A program made the position numbers and the translations under genes. The notes below the pieces were generated by a model. That model was not told the origin of the DNA and ran no database searches. It worked only from the letters and a program-made list of their open reading frames with translations. Below, in pieces: positions 9,410 to 42,826 of a DNA stretch of 55,121 nt (its first letter is position 1; each line of letters begins with the position of its first letter). This DNA is from a virus (Duplodnaviria; Caudoviricetes): the IMG/VR virus record IMGVR_UViG_3300025305_000023, positions 1 to 55,121 of that record; one strand, given 5' to 3'.

Positions 9410-11770
9410 TCATGTGTTTGGCATATTTTCATCTAAATCTGCATCTGCAACGTAATGAACGGAAACGTTATCAAACAGAACTGTTCCAGCAGGAACGAAT
9501 AGGTATATACCATTTTTAGTTCTATATTCGGCTGTTATTGAAGTTGCTGCTGCTGAGATGACTCTCGTTTTGCTTTCATACCCTCTAGTACCAGAGGATT
9601 TTTTCAAATCTCTACCTGATGTTCTATTGAGTGCATCGCCAGTTGTACCAGTTTTTGGTGAATATAAAGTAACTGTAGGATCACCTCTCATTACGACTGG
9701 GAACTTGTAATAGTAATCTTTACTTGGAGTAATAAGAAAATCAACAACAGTATCGTTGGGGGTATTAGAATCTAACATGGTTTGTGTGTGAGTAGATTGA
9801 TCTACACCATAACTTCTCTGATAGAACCGACTACACAAATTCAACTCATCATTTACGTTTGATTTTGGATTAGTGGTTGCAATTAGTCCTCTTTCTAGTT
9901 TAACTTTTGCCAAATCTAGTGTTGTGTTTAATCTTGCTGTACTAAACCCGAAACCAACATAATCCTTATTACCACTAGGCGTTGTTGTAATATTAGGTAC
10001 AAGGAATGCAATTTCATATTTACTCCACAATGTTCCTAACTGGACTGACGCAGGGTAGGATGTAAAGGTATTTGTGCCATCATATTGATTGATCACCAAA
10101 TCCATGGTAGCACCTGTAACACCAGACTTAGCCCAGAATGACATTGTTGCGTTTTCATTACGCAATGTTCTTACATCTTCTACTCGGTTTTCAATGTAAA
10201 CACAATCGCCCGCTATTCCACCTTGAGGATGGACATTGTTTTGTAGGGTAACGTAATATACTGGTTCGTTGGACACATCAGTCTGGTTGACAGTAAACGT
10301 ATTTCTTGCAACAGTATAGGTTCCTGCCGTACCACCACCACCGGAAACACCATCCATTCGGACCCAACGGTCAGCGAAGTATGTTGTTCCGGTTGAACCG
10401 CGAACCCCTGCACCCCTTTGCCAAATATCAAAATTCCCATTAATGAGAATGTTGTCATTCATTGCATGACCATATGTAGTGCCACCACTTGAGGTAGAAC
10501 GGAATGCCCAATTTCTGCCGCCATCTCCCCCCCGTGTGGCTGCTGCCGCTTGTCCACCACCACCACTATTATGGTTTTGATTAAATATGAAACCTCGTCT
10601 ATCTTCACCGCTAGGCCATGCAACTGCAAATGGTTTTACTTGTCCGCCTCCTCCGCCGGGATTTGTTGATGTTAGTTTACTGTCGTGTCCAACATATAGC
10701 AAACCACTACCACCATCACTTGTTGGAATATCATCAATATATCCTGTACCAACAATTTGAATATAAGTTTGTGCATCTAACACAAAAGGACTTGTAATAC
10801 ATATACCAACGGCAATTCCAAGATCATCACTAGAAGCATTTAGTTTTTTCCAATCAGCATTGGTTGGTGTCACTGAACTCCCATCATATCCGACGACATC
10901 GCCTCGGACGATATCGGTTCCTGCATCAATACTCACAATAAATCGGTTATTATCAATTCCACCCGTACCACCCGTACCAGAACCCTGTAAATATTGACCC
11001 CTATAATGTAGCACATATCCAACATCAGAAGTGACACCAAGCATTACTGGCTTATTAACTTGCCCGCTAACCACGGGTTCAACTCTAGTGATTCCTCCAC
11101 TATTACCGGGACTTAGAAAATAAACAGAACCGGCACTCAATCCACCATAAAAATCTGTTGCTCCGGTGAAATCACCCTTAACTTTACCGTGAGTAGTGAC
11201 TGTGATATAAGTGTTTGCTGAATTATATGGTCCTTGTGGTGTACCGCCACTATGCGGCCAAGTAATACCAGAAATAACACCAAAAACTTCTGCATAATTT
11301 TTATTGTCTGCTCTGGAAAGAAAATATTCAGGACCACCGGAACATCCATCAACTTCTCCAGCAACCCTTACTACCCTACCAAAAGTAAAACCTTTGGTTG
11401 CCGTGTAACCACCAAGAGGATATACTTTTGATTTAATTGAAGTAAGTTCTGCTTTAGATAAATCATAATTTAAAGTACCGTCAATGCTAACATCTCCTGA
11501 AAACGTAATTCCCTTTGGAATCACATCTGCAAGAGAGCATCTGAACACACCAGCACTTAAATCAGATCCTGATGTTATTCCTCCTAACGGATCGTTTGAA
11601 GCAGTAGTACCCAATGTAAATACGATACCATCGCCGGATGCACCAGTATAGATTGACATCCGATTGAGTTTTTCAACAACAAGAGCATTATAATGACTCA
11701 CCCAATCTGCAAAAGTAGTAGATTGAGTTAAGTTCCATATTTGGTATAGATTGTCTTCTGTGAATCCCAT
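9410..11770 (-). CDS. Tail fibre protein with C-terminal carbohydrate-binding-like domain
   Basis: 'NILINGNFDIWQRG...YFADRW...ELNLCSRFYQRS' motif set typical of phage fibre C-termini; TATAAATA late promoter upstream. Confidence 0.75.
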   Translation of the reverse strand: MGFTEDNLYQIWNLTQSTTFADWVSHYNALVVEKLNRMSIYTGASGDGIVFTLGTTASNDPLGGITSGSDLSAGVFRCSLADVIPKGITFSGDVSIDGTLNYDLSKAELTSIKSKVYPLGGYTATKGFTFGRVVRVAGEVDGCSGGPEYFLSRADNKNYAEVFGVISGITWPHSGGTPQGPYNSANTYITVTTHGKVKGDFTGATDFYGGLSAGSVYFLSPGNSGGITRVEPVVSGQVNKPVMLGVTSDVGYVLHYRGQYLQGSGTGGTGGIDNNRFIVSIDAGTDIVRGDVVGYDGSSVTPTNADWKKLNASSDDLGIAVGICITSPFVLDAQTYIQIVGTGYIDDIPTSDGGSGLLYVGHDSKLTSTNPGGGGGQVKPFAVAWPSGEDRRGFIFNQNHNSGGGGQAAAATRGGDGGRNWAFRSTSSGGTTYGHAMNDNILINGNFDIWQRGAGVRGSTGTTYFADRWVRMDGVSGGGGTAGTYTVARNTFTVNQTDVSNEPVYYVTLQNNVHPQGGIAGDCVYIENRVEDVRTLRNENATMSFWAKSGVTGATMDLVINQYDGTNTFTSYPASVQLGTLWSKYEIAFLVPNITTTPSGNKDYVGFGFSTARLNTTLDLAKVKLERGLIATTNPKSNVNDELNLCSRFYQRSYGVDQSTHTQTMLDSNTPNDTVVDFLITPSKDYYYKFPVVMRGDPTVTLYSPKTGTTGDALNRTSGRDLKKSSGTRGYESKTRVISAAATSITAEYRTKNGIYLFVPAGTVLFDNVSVHYVADADLDENMPNT

Positions 11771-38495: not shown

Positions 38496-38682
38496 CACAA
38501 ATTGTCTCTTTGCCGGGTAAAATTTTGATCCACTCATCTGCTGCTTGAACATCTTCAAGCATTTGATCACATGCACATTTATCTGCTGGTGTGCATCTAC
38601 AATCATCTGAAAAATATATCAATTTTGCTTTTAATCCACGAATTATTTGTTCATTTGGTTCCATAAAGGCCACATCCTTCAT
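38488..38682 (-). CDS. Hypothetical protein
   Basis: ATGA overlap with the MTase stop. Confidence 0.5.
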   Translation of the reverse strand: MKDVAFMEPNEQIIRGLKAKLIYFSDDCRCTPADKCACDQMLEDVQAADEWIKILPGKETICDG

Positions 38683-39446
38683 TCTGATAAAAAATCATCC
38701 AACGTTGCAACAGACAACACATCTGCTATACGTTCATTAGTTATTCTATAGTATTTATCATCCATTTCAATACCAATGTAATTTCTTTTTAAATTTATTG
38801 CTGCAATTGCAGTTGTTCCACTACCAATACAATTATCCAAAACTATATCTCCCTCTTTGGTATATGTTCGGATCATATATTCAAAGAGAGCAGTTGGTTT
38901 TTGTGTTGGGTGTAATCCAGTTTCTTGTTTAAAACGAAGAATCGTTTTTGGATATCGTGTTCCACGATTCTCGCGGTGCATACTTTTCTGATTGGCATAT
39001 ACTTCGCCAATAGTAGCACCATCTTTTGAGAAGAATCCACTATAAGGTTTTCCCTCTTCCATTTGAGGAAAATACTTTGATCGTTTTTTGGAAAACACCA
39101 ATACATTTTCATGAGATTTCATCGGCATTACGTTTGCGTTCAATGGATTTGTTCCTTGTGGTTTTTCCCAAATCCATTCATACCTAAACATCTTGATGTT
39201 ACTTGCAACCAATACACTGGTGAATGGTTGGGCAGCAGTTAGAACAATTGCAGCGTCTTCTTTTGCAATTCTGGTGTACTGACTCCACAAATCTTCAAAA
39301 GGAATTATAACGTCCCATTTACACGCAGTAGTTCCGTATGGAAGATCGCATAGAATCATATCAACAGAGTCATCTGGAATATCTTTCATAACTTCCAGAC
39401 AGTCTCCGTGGATAATTTGGTTTTTGAAGTCTTCTATGTTTTTCAT
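38679..39446 (-). CDS. DNA methyltransferase, N4/N6 beta class
   Basis: 'IIHGDCLEVM...ILCDLPYG...HPTQKP...VLDNCIGSGTT'; start trimmed to MKNIE (ATGA overlap). Confidence 0.95.
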   Translation of the reverse strand: MKNIEDFKNQIIHGDCLEVMKDIPDDSVDMILCDLPYGTTACKWDVIIPFEDLWSQYTRIAKEDAAIVLTAAQPFTSVLVASNIKMFRYEWIWEKPQGTNPLNANVMPMKSHENVLVFSKKRSKYFPQMEEGKPYSGFFSKDGATIGEVYANQKSMHRENRGTRYPKTILRFKQETGLHPTQKPTALFEYMIRTYTKEGDIVLDNCIGSGTTAIAAINLKRNYIGIEMDDKYYRITNERIADVLSVATLDDFLSE

Positions 39447-40003
39447 TTTGGAATTTCTATAATTGCTCGTTCGTTCAATAGAGAAAGTGGAATATCTAAC
39501 CACAACTGATCGCTCATCGATTTATGGATTCTAGCAACAAACGTGTTTCCTATTCCCTTCCATCCATCTTTTGTTTTTTTCCAATTTAATGATCTATAAT
39601 CCAGAATATCAGAATCAAAAGTATAAAGCGTATAGTGATGATTCGGTAAATCGTCTTTATATGATAAACAAAAGAATACGTCCTCATGATTCTCTGAGAG
39701 ATAATTTATTTTTTCTTCTAAGGTTTTCTTTGATGTTGTTCGGTGTGAAGAAACTGTGAATTTTGGTTTCTTCTTTCCTTTCATCCTTCCACCTTTACAG
39801 GATATTCTAATATCATTGTAAGTAATATCAGTTCCCACTTGATGACTGCCTGGATTCCACAACACATCATCGGATTGTTTAATTAGAGAATTATACAACA
39901 AATTCTCCCAGTTTATCCCATTAATAGGACTTACTAGGAGTCTGTGATATATTTGGAATTGTTCTTCCATATCAACAGATATTTTGTCGTAATCAATTTG
40001 CAT
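39443..40003 (-). CDS. Putative PD-(D/E)xK-type endonuclease partner of the MTase
   Basis: 'WE...GSHQVGTDI...ISCK' nuclease-like spacing; translationally coupled to the MTase. Confidence 0.45.
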   Translation of the reverse strand: MQIDYDKISVDMEEQFQIYHRLLVSPINGINWENLLYNSLIKQSDDVLWNPGSHQVGTDITYNDIRISCKGGRMKGKKKPKFTVSSHRTTSKKTLEEKINYLSENHEDVFFCLSYKDDLPNHHYTLYTFDSDILDYRSLNWKKTKDGWKGIGNTFVARIHKSMSDQLWLDIPLSLLNERAIIEIPK

Positions 40004-40009
40004 CATTAA

Positions 40010-40037
40010 ATTATATCACACATAATTCTAATGTCAA
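40010..40037 (-). promoter_or_regulatory. sigma70-type promoter driving a leaderless nuclease/MTase transcript
   Basis: TTGACA-16bp-TATAAT, ATG at 40003. Confidence 0.75.
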
Positions 40038-40051
40038 CAAGTTTATCGAAA

Positions 40052-40105
40052 GACAAGATGCCCGGGCGAATAACGCACGCTACTCTACAACCCGAACACC
40101 TTATC
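40052..40105 (-). ncRNA. Long G.U-rich hairpin RNA (unassigned)
   Basis: GATAAGGTGTTCGGG/CCCGGGCATCTTGTC 15-bp stem with 4 G.U pairs, plus an 8-bp apical stem. Confidence 0.45.
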
Positions 40106-40114
40106 GTGATTTGT

Positions 40115-40208
40115 TCGTTCCCAGTGGGGGCCACCCACTCAATGCCGTAATGAATCTTACATCATTTTCACCCGAAGGTCTACGAATGCCTTGTACTCGG
40201 GGGAACGA
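40115..40208 (-). ncRNA. Multi-stem structured RNA (unassigned)
   Basis: Closing stem TCGTTCCC/GGGAACGA enclosing four hairpins including a cUUCGg tetraloop. Confidence 0.55.
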
Positions 40209-40217
40209 GTTATTTCG

Positions 40218-40399
40218 GCCTGGGGAGGATTTCATTATACCTCCAACTTTCGGGGTCAACTAATGTTATTAATTTACCCTACTTGCACCATCGCTGTTTG
40301 AGTTACCAAACTAGACTCAGGCACTTGCCCGTCATCTACCCCACTACAGGGAGCAACATACTTTAGTCCGCATGACGAAAACTTTTTCAGTCACCAGGC
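40218..40399 (-). ncRNA. manA-like structured RNA
   Basis: GCCTGG/CCAGGC closing stem; blocks CATGCGGACTAAAGTATGTT, GCAAGTGCCTG, GGTGCAAGTAGGGT and AAGTTGGAGGTAT..CCTCC resemble the manA motif as I recall it (not searched). Confidence 0.65.
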
Positions 40400-40427
40400 T
40401 TGTGTGGTGATCAATCCCACACATAGT

Positions 40428-40472
40428 TATTCAATTTTCAAAAGCACCGGCAGGGCGGGCCCGCCCCGCCGG
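40428..40472 (-). promoter_or_regulatory. GC-rich hairpin plus rrn boxA-like antitermination site
   Basis: CCGGCGGGGCGG-GC-CCGCCCTGCCGG followed by TGCTTTTGAAAATTGAATA. Confidence 0.5.
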
Positions 40473-40606
40473 GCATAGAACAAGTTTTAGTTACTACTTT
40501 CTACAGTAGCGGCAGATCTCATAGTAGTGCGATAATGCGATTAACTATGATTTTCAATCCACATTTATGATTGAGATCATTCAATCAACTAAAACCCAAA
40601 ACCAAA

Positions 40607-40861
40607 TCAGCAAAGTCCAGCACGAATGGCAAACGGATTGTCCGTGTAACCATGGAATTCCATCCCGTAGGAGGTCTTGCCACTGGCGGATGGGCAAGAA
40701 GTAACGCTCCAGTTACCGTATGCTTCAACCTGATTCTTGATATCACTGATCGTAGCGCGCATGTTGCTCACACCGAATCGGCTTGAAGCCTGGCCGGGGG
40801 TGAGGGACTTGCCTTGTGCAAGATGATTAATGACACGCTGCTTCTTTGTAAGAGTACTCAT
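40607..40861 (-). CDS. Winged helix-turn-helix DNA-binding protein
   Basis: 'KKQRVINHLAQGKSLTPGQASSRFGVSNMRATISDIK'; GGAG SD before MSTLT. Confidence 0.75.
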   Translation of the reverse strand: MSTLTKKQRVINHLAQGKSLTPGQASSRFGVSNMRATISDIKNQVEAYGNWSVTSCPSASGKTSYGMEFHGYTDNPFAIRAGLC

Positions 40862-40950
40862 AATGTACTTCTCCATTCAATTGCGACATTTACTTAAGAA
40901 AAGAAAAAGATGTCTGTCGCTCGCATCCGTTTCTTGATTGTTATACGAGT

Positions 40951-40978
40951 AGTATACTCTACTGCTCCCCGTTGTCAA
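40951..40978 (-). promoter_or_regulatory. sigma70-type promoter
   Basis: TTGACA-16bp-TATACT. Confidence 0.75.
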
Positions 40979-41662: not shown

Positions 41663-42826
41663 TTAATTTGCTTTTCTAAACTGCTGCAATTTCTTCCTTG
41701 GAACTTTGAGTCCAGAAACTATAGTGTACAGCCTCAGACTATCTTTGTTGTCCTCATATATCCCTCTGTGCAATACTGCATTCGGACACAGCGAAGATAG
41801 TGTATCAAACCCATAGGATAGGCTGTCCATCAAACCCGGTGTATTTTCCATGATGTCCTTGCTGCCGACTGCCACACATGCAGCAGCACTAGAATCTGAA
41901 AGTTCTACGTCACTGAGAAGTGTCTTTTCAATGTTGGCCTTGATTGCATTTGATACCTTTTGTTCGTCATCAAATTCCTTTAGTTTCGCAACACCCATCA
42001 CCAATACACCACCGCATCTCAGTACACCTGCATAGTCCGTAGGATCAAATGAAGTGTACGGCGAAGCATTGTTGGTAAGAATATTGAACACATGGAACAA
42101 TCCAGATACAGTGTTGTTGACCGTAGGCCAGAATTGTTTGACGGTCAGTCCCTTGTACATCTTTTCGATTTTGGAATTGTCGATGATGAGGAGTGGCGAG
42201 ATTTCACCAGATTCTGCACATTCGCCAATGCTGCTCAATGTCTCATATGCATTTGCAGATACCTGTGGTGATGTTGCTTCCCCTCTTGTGGGTAATGACA
42301 TAACAACACCGACTCGTTTTTCTGGATCGTCGTGTCCAATGTATTTCATGTATTTCTTTGCAGTTTCAATCAAGACGAGTGCTGAACCGCTTCCGCTGCC
42401 ACCACCTGCACCAATGCATATGAAAACATGGTCAACATTGTTGCCATAGGTTTTCCGCATGAGATCAAACACATTTTGCTTGTACTTGTTTGCAGCCTCA
42501 TGCCCTCTTTCCATATTCTTCCCTGCACCCTGCTCACCAATGTCGAGCAGCATCTTTTGCTCTACAGGCAGATCAAGAGAATCCAGATCGTGATTGGAAG
42601 TGTTCACTGCGATGCACTTTCTATACCCCCGGTCATAGAATGCCTTGGCAATTCGTCCACCACCCTGTCCAGAACCAATCCATGCAAAGGTTTGCGAACC
42701 ACCAGATTCGTCCTTTACTGCATTCTCTTCTTCGTCTGGAATTTCGTAGTCTTCCAAATCAATGTCTGGAATTTCCAAGTCTGGAAGTTGATTATCTAGT
42801 TCTTCGTTTGTTGTTTCTTCGCTCAT
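41663..42826 (-). CDS. Tubulin/FtsZ-family GTPase
   Basis: T1 'IGSGQGGGRI', 'IAVNTS', 'GAGKN', T4 'GAGGGSGSG', 'IIDN', T7-like 'SFDPTD'; acidic N-terminal extension. Confidence 0.9.
   Translation of the reverse strand: MSEETTNEELDNQLPDLEIPDIDLEDYEIPDEEENAVKDESGGSQTFAWIGSGQGGGRIAKAFYDRGYRKCIAVNTSNHDLDSLDLPVEQKMLLDIGEQGAGKNMERGHEAANKYKQNVFDLMRKTYGNNVDHVFICIGAGGGSGSGSALVLIETAKKYMKYIGHDDPEKRVGVVMSLPTRGEATSPQVSANAYETLSSIGECAESGEISPLLIIDNSKIEKMYKGLTVKQFWPTVNNTVSGLFHVFNILTNNASPYTSFDPTDYAGVLRCGGVLVMGVAKLKEFDDEQKVSNAIKANIEKTLLSDVELSDSSAAACVAVGSKDIMENTPGLMDSLSYGFDTLSSLCPNAVLHRGIYEDNKDSLRLYTIVSGLKVPRKKLQQFRKAN

Follow-up and report, generated by a model that had tools for sequence, protein, structure and literature searches.

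A manA RNA and a member of a new structured RNA family in a protein-free cassette of an uncultured marine phage

The 55,121-nucleotide stretch of phage DNA analyzed here (IMG/VR virus record IMGVR_UViG_3300025305_000023), referred to below as the window, contains a minus-strand region of ~500 nt at positions 40052 to 40550 that is probably a protein-free RNA cassette with two free-standing structured RNAs: manA and a member of a new RNA family that we call unit 2. The cassette is bounded by hairpins, and its RNAs may act in trans after processing. Reading along the minus strand, a winged-helix gene is followed by a folded element in its 3′ untranslated region (UTR), a GC hairpin, a short box, manA, a 9-nt linker (CGAAAUAAC), unit 2, a second 9-nt linker (ACAAAUCAC), a 54-nt hairpin (unit 3) with UUUC, a sigma-70 promoter, and the next open reading frame (ORF). 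An earlier note on this DNA, made from the sequence alone, had described the region as lacking a credible ORF and containing a GC hairpin and self-closed units of 182, 94, and 54 nt separated by 9-nt A-rich linkers. All of these features were confirmed on the minus strand, with overlapping reading frames of just 36 to 52 aa. The interpretation that the earlier note built on them, an rrn-style antiterminated operon of processed stable RNAs, is partly supported as a whole, with its rrn-style antitermination component not supported.

Unit 1 is a full-length manA RNA

The two RNAs that define the cassette are as follows.

40214 to 40423, minus strand: manA RNA (Rfam RF01745), full length, comprising the 182-nt unit 1 (40399 to 40218) and a 5′ hairpin
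40115 to 40208, minus strand: unit 2, member of an uncatalogued RNA family, identified by its score of 101.1 bits with covariance model R1 and by covariation

Unit 1, which is closed by the stem GCCUGG/CCAGGC, had been likened to the manA motif, and an Rfam search bears this out. The match covers the whole model (positions 1 to 192 of 192) with a score of 71.1 bits, above the gathering score of 55.2, and an E-value of 3.7e-16, which is beyond chance. The window manA is a new member of this known family. The span given earlier for unit 1 was right but omitted the 5′ hairpin at 40423 to 40401; because this hairpin belongs to the family model, manA starts 24 nt upstream of unit 1. The tRNA-like corners that had been seen in unit 1 are not supported: neither unit matches the tRNA model, and it is instead unit 2 that has a roughly tRNA-like layout.

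The window copy resembles other members of RF01745 in its whole-model match and in its source, a marine T4-like phage. Its setting is different: here manA does not form part of a 5′ UTR belonging to a mannose, nucleotide, or photosynthesis gene but is flanked by two hairpins, with a winged-helix gene before it and a second RNA after it, and the phage is far from the cyanophage isolates.

Unit 2 represents an RNA family outside Rfam

Twenty-one loci of relatives were gathered via the adjacent winged-helix protein, and the invariant 18-mer of unit 2 was used as an anchor to find further copies; the fetched loci, designated by L-numbers (L003, L008, L026, and so on), amount to 1.2 Mb altogether. 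The covariance model R1 of unit 2 rests on 13 sequences, of which the window copy is one. The window copy (40208 to 40115, 94 nt, closing stem UCGUUCCC/GGGAACGA) scores 101.1 bits with R1 and forms every helix, compared with at most 24 bits for the anchor alone, and R1 finds this one copy in the window. In viral contigs, 42 anchor stretches led to 32 distinct full copies, the window's included, that score 45 to 119 bits; the remaining matches comprised three in coding sequence, three of an odd variant type, and one truncated copy. Metagenome contigs yielded more than 119 anchor stretches, and 51 of the 80 loci listed among them hold a true copy (49 to 117 bits). The family thus numbers ~75 distinct sequences (32 viral copies and 44 metagenome rows) with lengths of ~95 to 200 nt.

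Searches of other collections delimit the family. The same Rfam analysis that identified manA gave no match for unit 2 at E ≤ 10, with the tRNA clan included, placing it outside Rfam, and in 13 loci with other copies, subtypes B and C among them, no Rfam family reached its gathering score for unit 2. Across 185,579 prokaryotic species genomes there were 40 anchor stretches, close to the ~35 that we estimate would occur by chance, and none of the 40 is a member of the family, as they score at most 23.7 bits with R1. Blastn searches with the 621-nt region and with unit 2 returned nothing from 50,697 phage records; at this sensitivity they detected no cultured phage that carries unit 2. Conservation within the family is high: in L017, unit 2 is 89% identical to the window copy, compared with ~71% for manA and 47% for the flanking protein.

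Unit 2 consists of a closing stem (P1), a helix P2, a variable hairpin (P4), the invariant stretch AUGAUGUAAGAUUCAUUA (P5), and a 3′ hairpin (P6), and RNAalifold predicted P1, P2, P4, P5, and P6 independently from 13 sequences. The window copy folds with -32.3 kcal/mol (z -2.0), and 11 of 200 shuffled sequences fold equally well. Covariation was counted in two alignments fitted to the nested helices of R1, A5 for the viral set (32 rows) and A6 for the metagenome set (44 distinct rows); the pseudoknot described below is not part of R1. Four subtype-C rows of A5 that have an extra hairpin (L026, L039, L042, and L047) are partly misaligned and were kept, which lowers the paired percentage, and two MAFFT alignments (A1 and A2) that placed the 3′ hairpin of subtypes B and C wrongly were excluded from the counts.

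Cells with standard pairs: A5, 96.5%; A6, 95.5%
Cells with standard pairs, partners slid by 1 to 3 columns: A5, 38-49%; A6, 38-53%
Pairs changed on both sides: A5, 21/35; A6, 22/35
Shuffles reaching the observed values: A5, 0/500; A6, 0/500
Pseudoknot pair types: A5, G-C 12, G-U 8, A-U 7, other 3; A6, G-C 19, G-U 12, A-U 11, other 1

With compensatory changes in 21 to 22 of 35 pairs, the earlier expectation that the region would hold a further structured RNA beside manA is confirmed for unit 2, and its standing as a new, strongly conserved RNA family is well supported. In the window, AAGGC near the 5′ end of unit 2 is the pairing partner of the P6 loop, GGCC, and across the family a pseudoknot joins a 5′ AA(G/A)GCC with a 3′ hairpin loop GGC(C/U). 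P1 (8 bp) runs unbroken into P6 (6 bp), while P2 and P5 make up a second arm that carries an invariant hairpin with the loop GUAAGA. Between the second arm and P6 there is a gap of 4 to 5 nt or, in some subtype-C copies, an extra hairpin. By analogy, this layout is roughly that of tRNA in plan: the closing stem continues into a 3′ hairpin whose covarying loop pairs with a 5′ segment, so that the loop-loop pseudoknot would correspond to the elbow at which the T-loop and D-loop meet, and the short linker, or the extra hairpin, occupies the place of the variable loop. The likeness suggests that unit 2 may interact with the tRNA machinery.

Two further kinds of RNA were noticed near the edge of the family. 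After manA in L007 (760-900) there is a divergent unit-2-like RNA that keeps the closing stem (CUCGUUC.../...GGGAACGA) and the GUAAGA loop; its P5 stem differs (AGUG/CACU, by eye), and R1 misses it. Three loci (L025, L028, and L033) have another RNA type, which shares the invariant 18-nt stretch (GGAAU-anchor-GGUC) and little else; R1 gives 17 to 25 bits in L028 and L033 and lists no match at E ≤ 1 in L025. Likenesses to a hammerhead, a K-turn, and a C box, as well as an AUG-AUG-UAA mini-frame in the invariant stretch, were judged by eye, and none was supported.

Genomic context favors free-standing RNAs

Of the 32 distinct viral copies of unit 2, 24 are preceded by manA on the same strand, at a distance of up to 15 nt in 16 cases and of 55 to 204 nt in the other eight, where other modules intervene. 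The remaining eight copies occur without manA and include L026, in which tRNA-Arg is followed after 1 nt by unit 2 and after a further 5 nt by tRNA-Leu, and L039, in which a tRNA begins 1 to 2 nt past unit 2. Unit 2 is thus placed with the spacing of a tRNA gene in such arrays. The same is true of manA in the cyanophage isolate S-CREM1, where it begins 1 nt after tRNA-Leu and abuts tRNA-Asn. With distances of 1 to 5 nt between unit 2 and tRNAs in relatives and 0 to 1 nt for manA in S-CREM1, the likeness to a tRNA array that had been noted from the window extends to actual tRNA arrays. S-CREM1 has no unit 2 (at most 5.8 bits with R1); its annotation (L225, record positions 10132-10643) gives tRNA-Leu, manA, tRNA-Asn, an 'abiF' hit, and tRNA-Gly, back to back.

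Among the 11 loci that were ascertained through the protein and have manA, six have unit 2, and in the closest relative, L008, manA is joined directly to the end hairpin with no unit 2. Unit 2 is therefore an optional, separate module. The genes downstream also vary among relatives and include methyltransferases, small proteins, tRNAs, and a permuted transfer-messenger RNA (tmRNA). Genes for permuted tmRNA, of the two-piece type, lie near the manA cassette in L006 (3664-3926), L014 (4492-4764), L016 (5750-6010), and L019 to L021, and a standard tmRNA does so in one relative (L064, 6560-6896); the window itself has no tmRNA.

These contexts bear on the classical view of manA as a cis-acting leader, or riboswitch, which with or without unit 2 would control the downstream gene via the end hairpin. 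Weinberg et al (2010; PMC2864571) place manA in potential 5′ UTRs, and the hairpin and short U-run that follow the RNAs resemble an expression platform. In L004, moreover, no recognizable promoter separates the end hairpin from the homologue of the downstream ORF that comes after it, so that a leader role is possible there, a point that counts against free-standing RNAs. In the window, however, manA is not in a 5′ UTR setting: the end hairpin and a promoter with 12 of 12 matches lie between manA and the next ORF, and a perfect sigma-70 promoter occupies the same position in L008. In addition, the downstream genes of relatives are unrelated, with tRNAs and tmRNA among them, both manA and unit 2 are found within tRNA arrays at spacings of 0 to 5 nt, and unit 2 is gained or lost while the end hairpin is unchanged. 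We therefore regard control of the downstream gene in cis as unlikely. The hairpins on both sides, the separate downstream promoter, the varied downstream genes, and the placement in tRNA arrays favor free RNAs, in keeping with the preference for a trans-acting role in the earlier note.

The nearest functional analogues that we found are rnaC and rnaD of phage T4 (species 1 and 2), which are tandem small stable non-tRNA RNAs in the tRNA region. Their arrangement of tRNA-Arg, 1 nt, rnaD, 6 nt, rnaC is comparable to that around unit 2 in L026. Homology with these RNAs was considered and rejected: with filters off, no R1 score in the T4 region exceeds 7.6 bits, and an Rfam search of that region detects no manA.

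Two more elements recur in these loci. Module X, an RNA-like element of ~94 to 170 nt with the pattern UUGGUGGUGCAGAAGCAC ... GAGGGAUUAAUCGGACGAUGGUGAAAA ... GAACCACCAA, lies between manA and unit 2 or past unit 2; it has 21 distinct copies, with compensatory changes visible in the closing stem (examples are L023:5098-5191, L032:10762-10882 on the minus strand, L054:1501-1671, and L009:3380-3470). Module Y, of ~64 to 78 nt with the pattern UUGGGGAAGUGGACGGAAGACACUUCC ... GAUGAAGGAAACCUCCUUCCCC, sits between manA and module X and has 14 distinct copies (for example L038:9484-9547 on the minus strand, L023:5020-5083, and L035:2015-2080). In six scanned loci carrying X or Y, no Rfam family reached its gathering score for either module. 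Some phages therefore have all four RNAs, manA, Y, X, and unit 2, in one array. A chimeric RNA was also seen in L009 (3330-3480), where the 5′ hairpin and the GUGACUGAA segment of manA are fused to module X, with no manA body, and are followed by unit 2.

Sequences flanking the two RNAs

The other features of the locus, all on the minus strand, are listed in the order of transcription.

40607 to 40876, minus strand: small winged-helix gene, 89 aa, directly upstream of the RNA cassette
40485 to 40594, minus strand: folded 3′ UTR element, 110 nt, right after the winged-helix stop codon (RNAalifold, 5 sequences)
40447 to 40472, minus strand: GC hairpin and tail UGCUUUUG (terminator scan: 11 pairs, 10 of them G-C, loop of 4)
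40427 to 40441, minus strand: leader box UUGAAAAUUGAAUAA just 5′ of manA, conserved in relatives
40052 to 40105, minus strand: unit 3, a long hairpin with bulges and a UUUC tail (fold z -6.9)
40010 to 40037, minus strand: sigma-70-type promoter, TTGACA, 16 nt, TG-n-TATAAT (12 of 12 matches, with TG)

The winged-helix protein matches phrog_4973 (E 2.3e-7) and, below that family's cut-off, Pfam HTH_39 (E 4.8e-4), and a sigma-70-like promoter with 11 of 12 matches lies upstream of its gene at 40978 to 40951. In 47 of the 51 distinct manA loci with enough upstream sequence, a set that was partly collected through the winged-helix protein itself, a homologue has its end no more than 450 nt before manA, and the customary order in relatives is tRNA-Lys, winged-helix gene, manA. 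The element behind the stop codon has a closing stem UUUUAGUU/AACUAAAA that encloses three hairpins; compensatory changes in 3 of its 26 predicted pairs provide weak evidence for a conserved folded RNA.

The GC hairpin, with a predicted fold of -28.3 kcal/mol (z -3.2), stands directly before a U-run and in this respect has the form of an intrinsic terminator. The sequence after it can also be given as TGCTTTTGAAAATTGAATA, and the tail reported by the terminator scan is TGCTTTTGAA. Reading of 27 full-length distinct 5′ flanks of manA showed that 25 combine a hairpin and U-run with the box GA(C/A)AA-N-UGAAUAA; the conserved core near manA is (U)n-GA(C/A)AA-N-UGAAUAA. In the other two flanks, from L011 and L027, a sigma-70-like promoter replaces the hairpin and the box is kept in the transcript; the -10 hexamer TACAAT of this promoter (L011:3290-3340, and L027) is located in the loop formed by a perfect inverted repeat, CGAGTA-CAA-TACTCG. 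When the box pattern is loosened, the fetched loci contain 85 occurrences, of which 50 are within 60 nt upstream of an RNA module, which is manA in 48 cases. As a general phage promoter the box was rejected, since it has just one exact match in the window; with up to two mismatches there are 3 matches, compared with 3.3 expected. It may be a start site, a processing signal, or a phage-specific signal.

The earlier note had interpreted this leader as that of an rrn-style operon. On such a reading, the GC hairpin (boxB-like) and TGCTTTTGAAAA (boxA-like) would load Nus factors for read-through. Like the leaders of rrn and lambda, it does have a hairpin and then a U/A-rich box before structured RNA genes; the window sequence TGCTTTTGAAAAT agrees at ~10 of 13 positions with the E. 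coli rrn boxA, and a box behind the hairpin is conserved before nearly all manA cassettes. The TGCT part of this likeness, however, is confined among the 27 flanks to the window and three near relatives (L003, L004, and L008), for which reason the boxA assignment is not supported, and the U-run varies in length. What is conserved among relatives is not a boxA core, the hairpin with its U-run matches the terminator pattern, and L011 and L027 retain the box with a promoter in place of the hairpin. We consider antitermination by Nus factors quite improbable here.

On the other side of the cassette, unit 3 (54 nt) folds with -29.4 kcal/mol, and none of 200 shuffled sequences folds as well. It had been taken for a third RNA gene, but blastn recovers it only in L008, where its pairs are preserved through several changes (by eye), and it occupies the position at which relatives have a hairpin and U-run. 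In a crude scan, such a hairpin and U-run lie within 130 nt downstream of unit 2 in 47 of 73 distinct loci; the rest include loci with tRNAs or module X past unit 2, and many loci then have a sigma-70-like promoter. We take unit 3 to be the hairpin that ends the cassette, either as a weak terminator or as a 3′ stabilizer. The promoter behind it serves the next ORF (39443-40006), whose ATG lies approximately where transcription would start (40003-40037, minus strand); with no Shine-Dalgarno sequence visible, this mRNA is possibly leaderless. No relatives of this ORF were found in viral contigs. After it comes a gene for an N4/N6 DNA methyltransferase (38679-39503).

More widely, the window has T4-type baseplate genes and five tRNAs by ARAGORN, none of them within 40052 to 40423, and its completeness as a 55-kb record is estimated at 26%. 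Its gp6-like baseplate protein shares no more than 31% identity with the counterpart in any phage isolate, and the nearest isolates are a Synechococcus phage and Sinorhizobium phiM12-type phages; the source is therefore an uncultured, deep-branching T4-like marine myovirus. The DNA runs that contain the RNA stretch carry the label marine metagenome. A tubulin/TubZ-like gene is present at 41663-42826 on the minus strand (Pfam Tubulin E 2.2e-13, with a TubZ-like C-terminal domain).

Other explanations for unit 2

Its long invariant core, pseudoknot, and compact junction give unit 2 the appearance of a small ribozyme, and its location at junctions between RNA modules would suit an RNA that divides the array by self-cleavage or some other catalysis. 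No ribozyme family of Rfam matches it at E ≤ 10, though, its junction lacks a hammerhead core by eye, the positions of a would-be CUGA vary, and tRNA enzymes would suffice in tRNA arrays. Moreover, cassettes without unit 2 exist, L008 among them, so it is not needed for the processing of manA. A catalytic role accordingly has a low probability in our judgment. Finally, unit 2 is very improbable as a small mobile DNA insertion resembling a miniature inverted-repeat transposable element, in which the closing stem would supply the terminal inverted repeats and the 9-nt linkers the target duplication: its exact presence or absence between the window and L008 and the alike linkers AAAUAAC and AAAUCAC fit that idea, but each locus, like the window, has a single copy, always on the strand of the adjacent RNA genes, and compensatory changes in four internal helices and the pseudoknot point to selection on RNA, not on DNA ends.

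A model for the cassette

In the model that we favor, the cassette would be transcribed by read-through from the promoter of the winged-helix gene or from an unrecognized start at the leader box. Host RNA-processing enzymes would then cut the RNAs apart at the A-rich linkers, as they do tRNA arrays, and the separated RNAs would work in trans. manA could act as a self-assembling multimer, and unit 2 as a compact, tRNA-shaped RNA bound to a tRNA-recognizing or phage factor. The 54-nt hairpin would terminate or stabilize the transcript, with the next gene relying on its own promoter.

Several observations weigh against this model. We found no promoter for manA in the window, and the hairpin upstream is terminator-like, while the U-tract of unit 3 is poor, consisting of UUUC only. 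The sole RNA evidence is a 196-nt metatranscriptome contig from a relative (run set X23), which covers 40220 to 40402, or manA only, and is a weak hint at most, as contigs of this kind reveal neither ends nor expression and DNA carry-over is possible; X23 also gave one short piece on the winged-helix gene, and a second RNA run set (X24) gave no contig on the stretch. For unit 2, the covariation counts come from alignments that had been fitted to the structure of the model, and P5 is invariant in the aligned members, so that covariation says nothing about it. The comparison with tRNA is also limited: P1 and P6 stack over 14 to 15 pairs and not the 12 of tRNA, no CCA is encoded after P1, and unit 2 has no D arm, 7-nt T-loop sequence, or anticodon-loop signature; neither ARAGORN nor the Rfam tRNA model calls it.

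GOLLD and ROOL are large tRNA-associated RNAs. Like manA, they are phage-borne and structured, and manA is much smaller. They are reported to form RNA-only cages (10.1101/2024.12.08.627333). A preprint of July 2026 (10.64898/2026.07.01.735769), as far as its accessible text goes, describes 8-, 10-, and 60-mers of manA in vitro by electron cryomicroscopy, of which the 60-mer is a cage; free-standing manA RNA in the cassette fits these cages. The same text still labels manA a putative cis-regulatory element, is silent on its biology, and does not show the window sequence among the constructs; the word 'tRNA' is absent from the preprint's main text. In the literature searched, we found no description of a partner RNA for manA. 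A bolder and on balance doubtful idea is that manA heads a modular phage 'RNA operon' with unit 2, X, and Y as dedicated partner RNAs, in which unit 2 might be a cargo or adaptor of the manA assembly, or a tRNA decoy that keeps a host tRNA-recognizing enzyme or defense nuclease occupied in infected cells.

Since 2010, manA has had the status of an orphan 'riboswitch candidate', and the locus described here and its relatives show it to be a gene of its own, with linkage to a winged-helix gene. It is physically coupled to a second, even more conserved, uncatalogued RNA, whose family of ~75 distinct sequences has no member among the 40 anchor matches in cellular genomes, and in some phages to two further modules. 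These RNAs provide concrete, testable partners for a cage-forming RNA.

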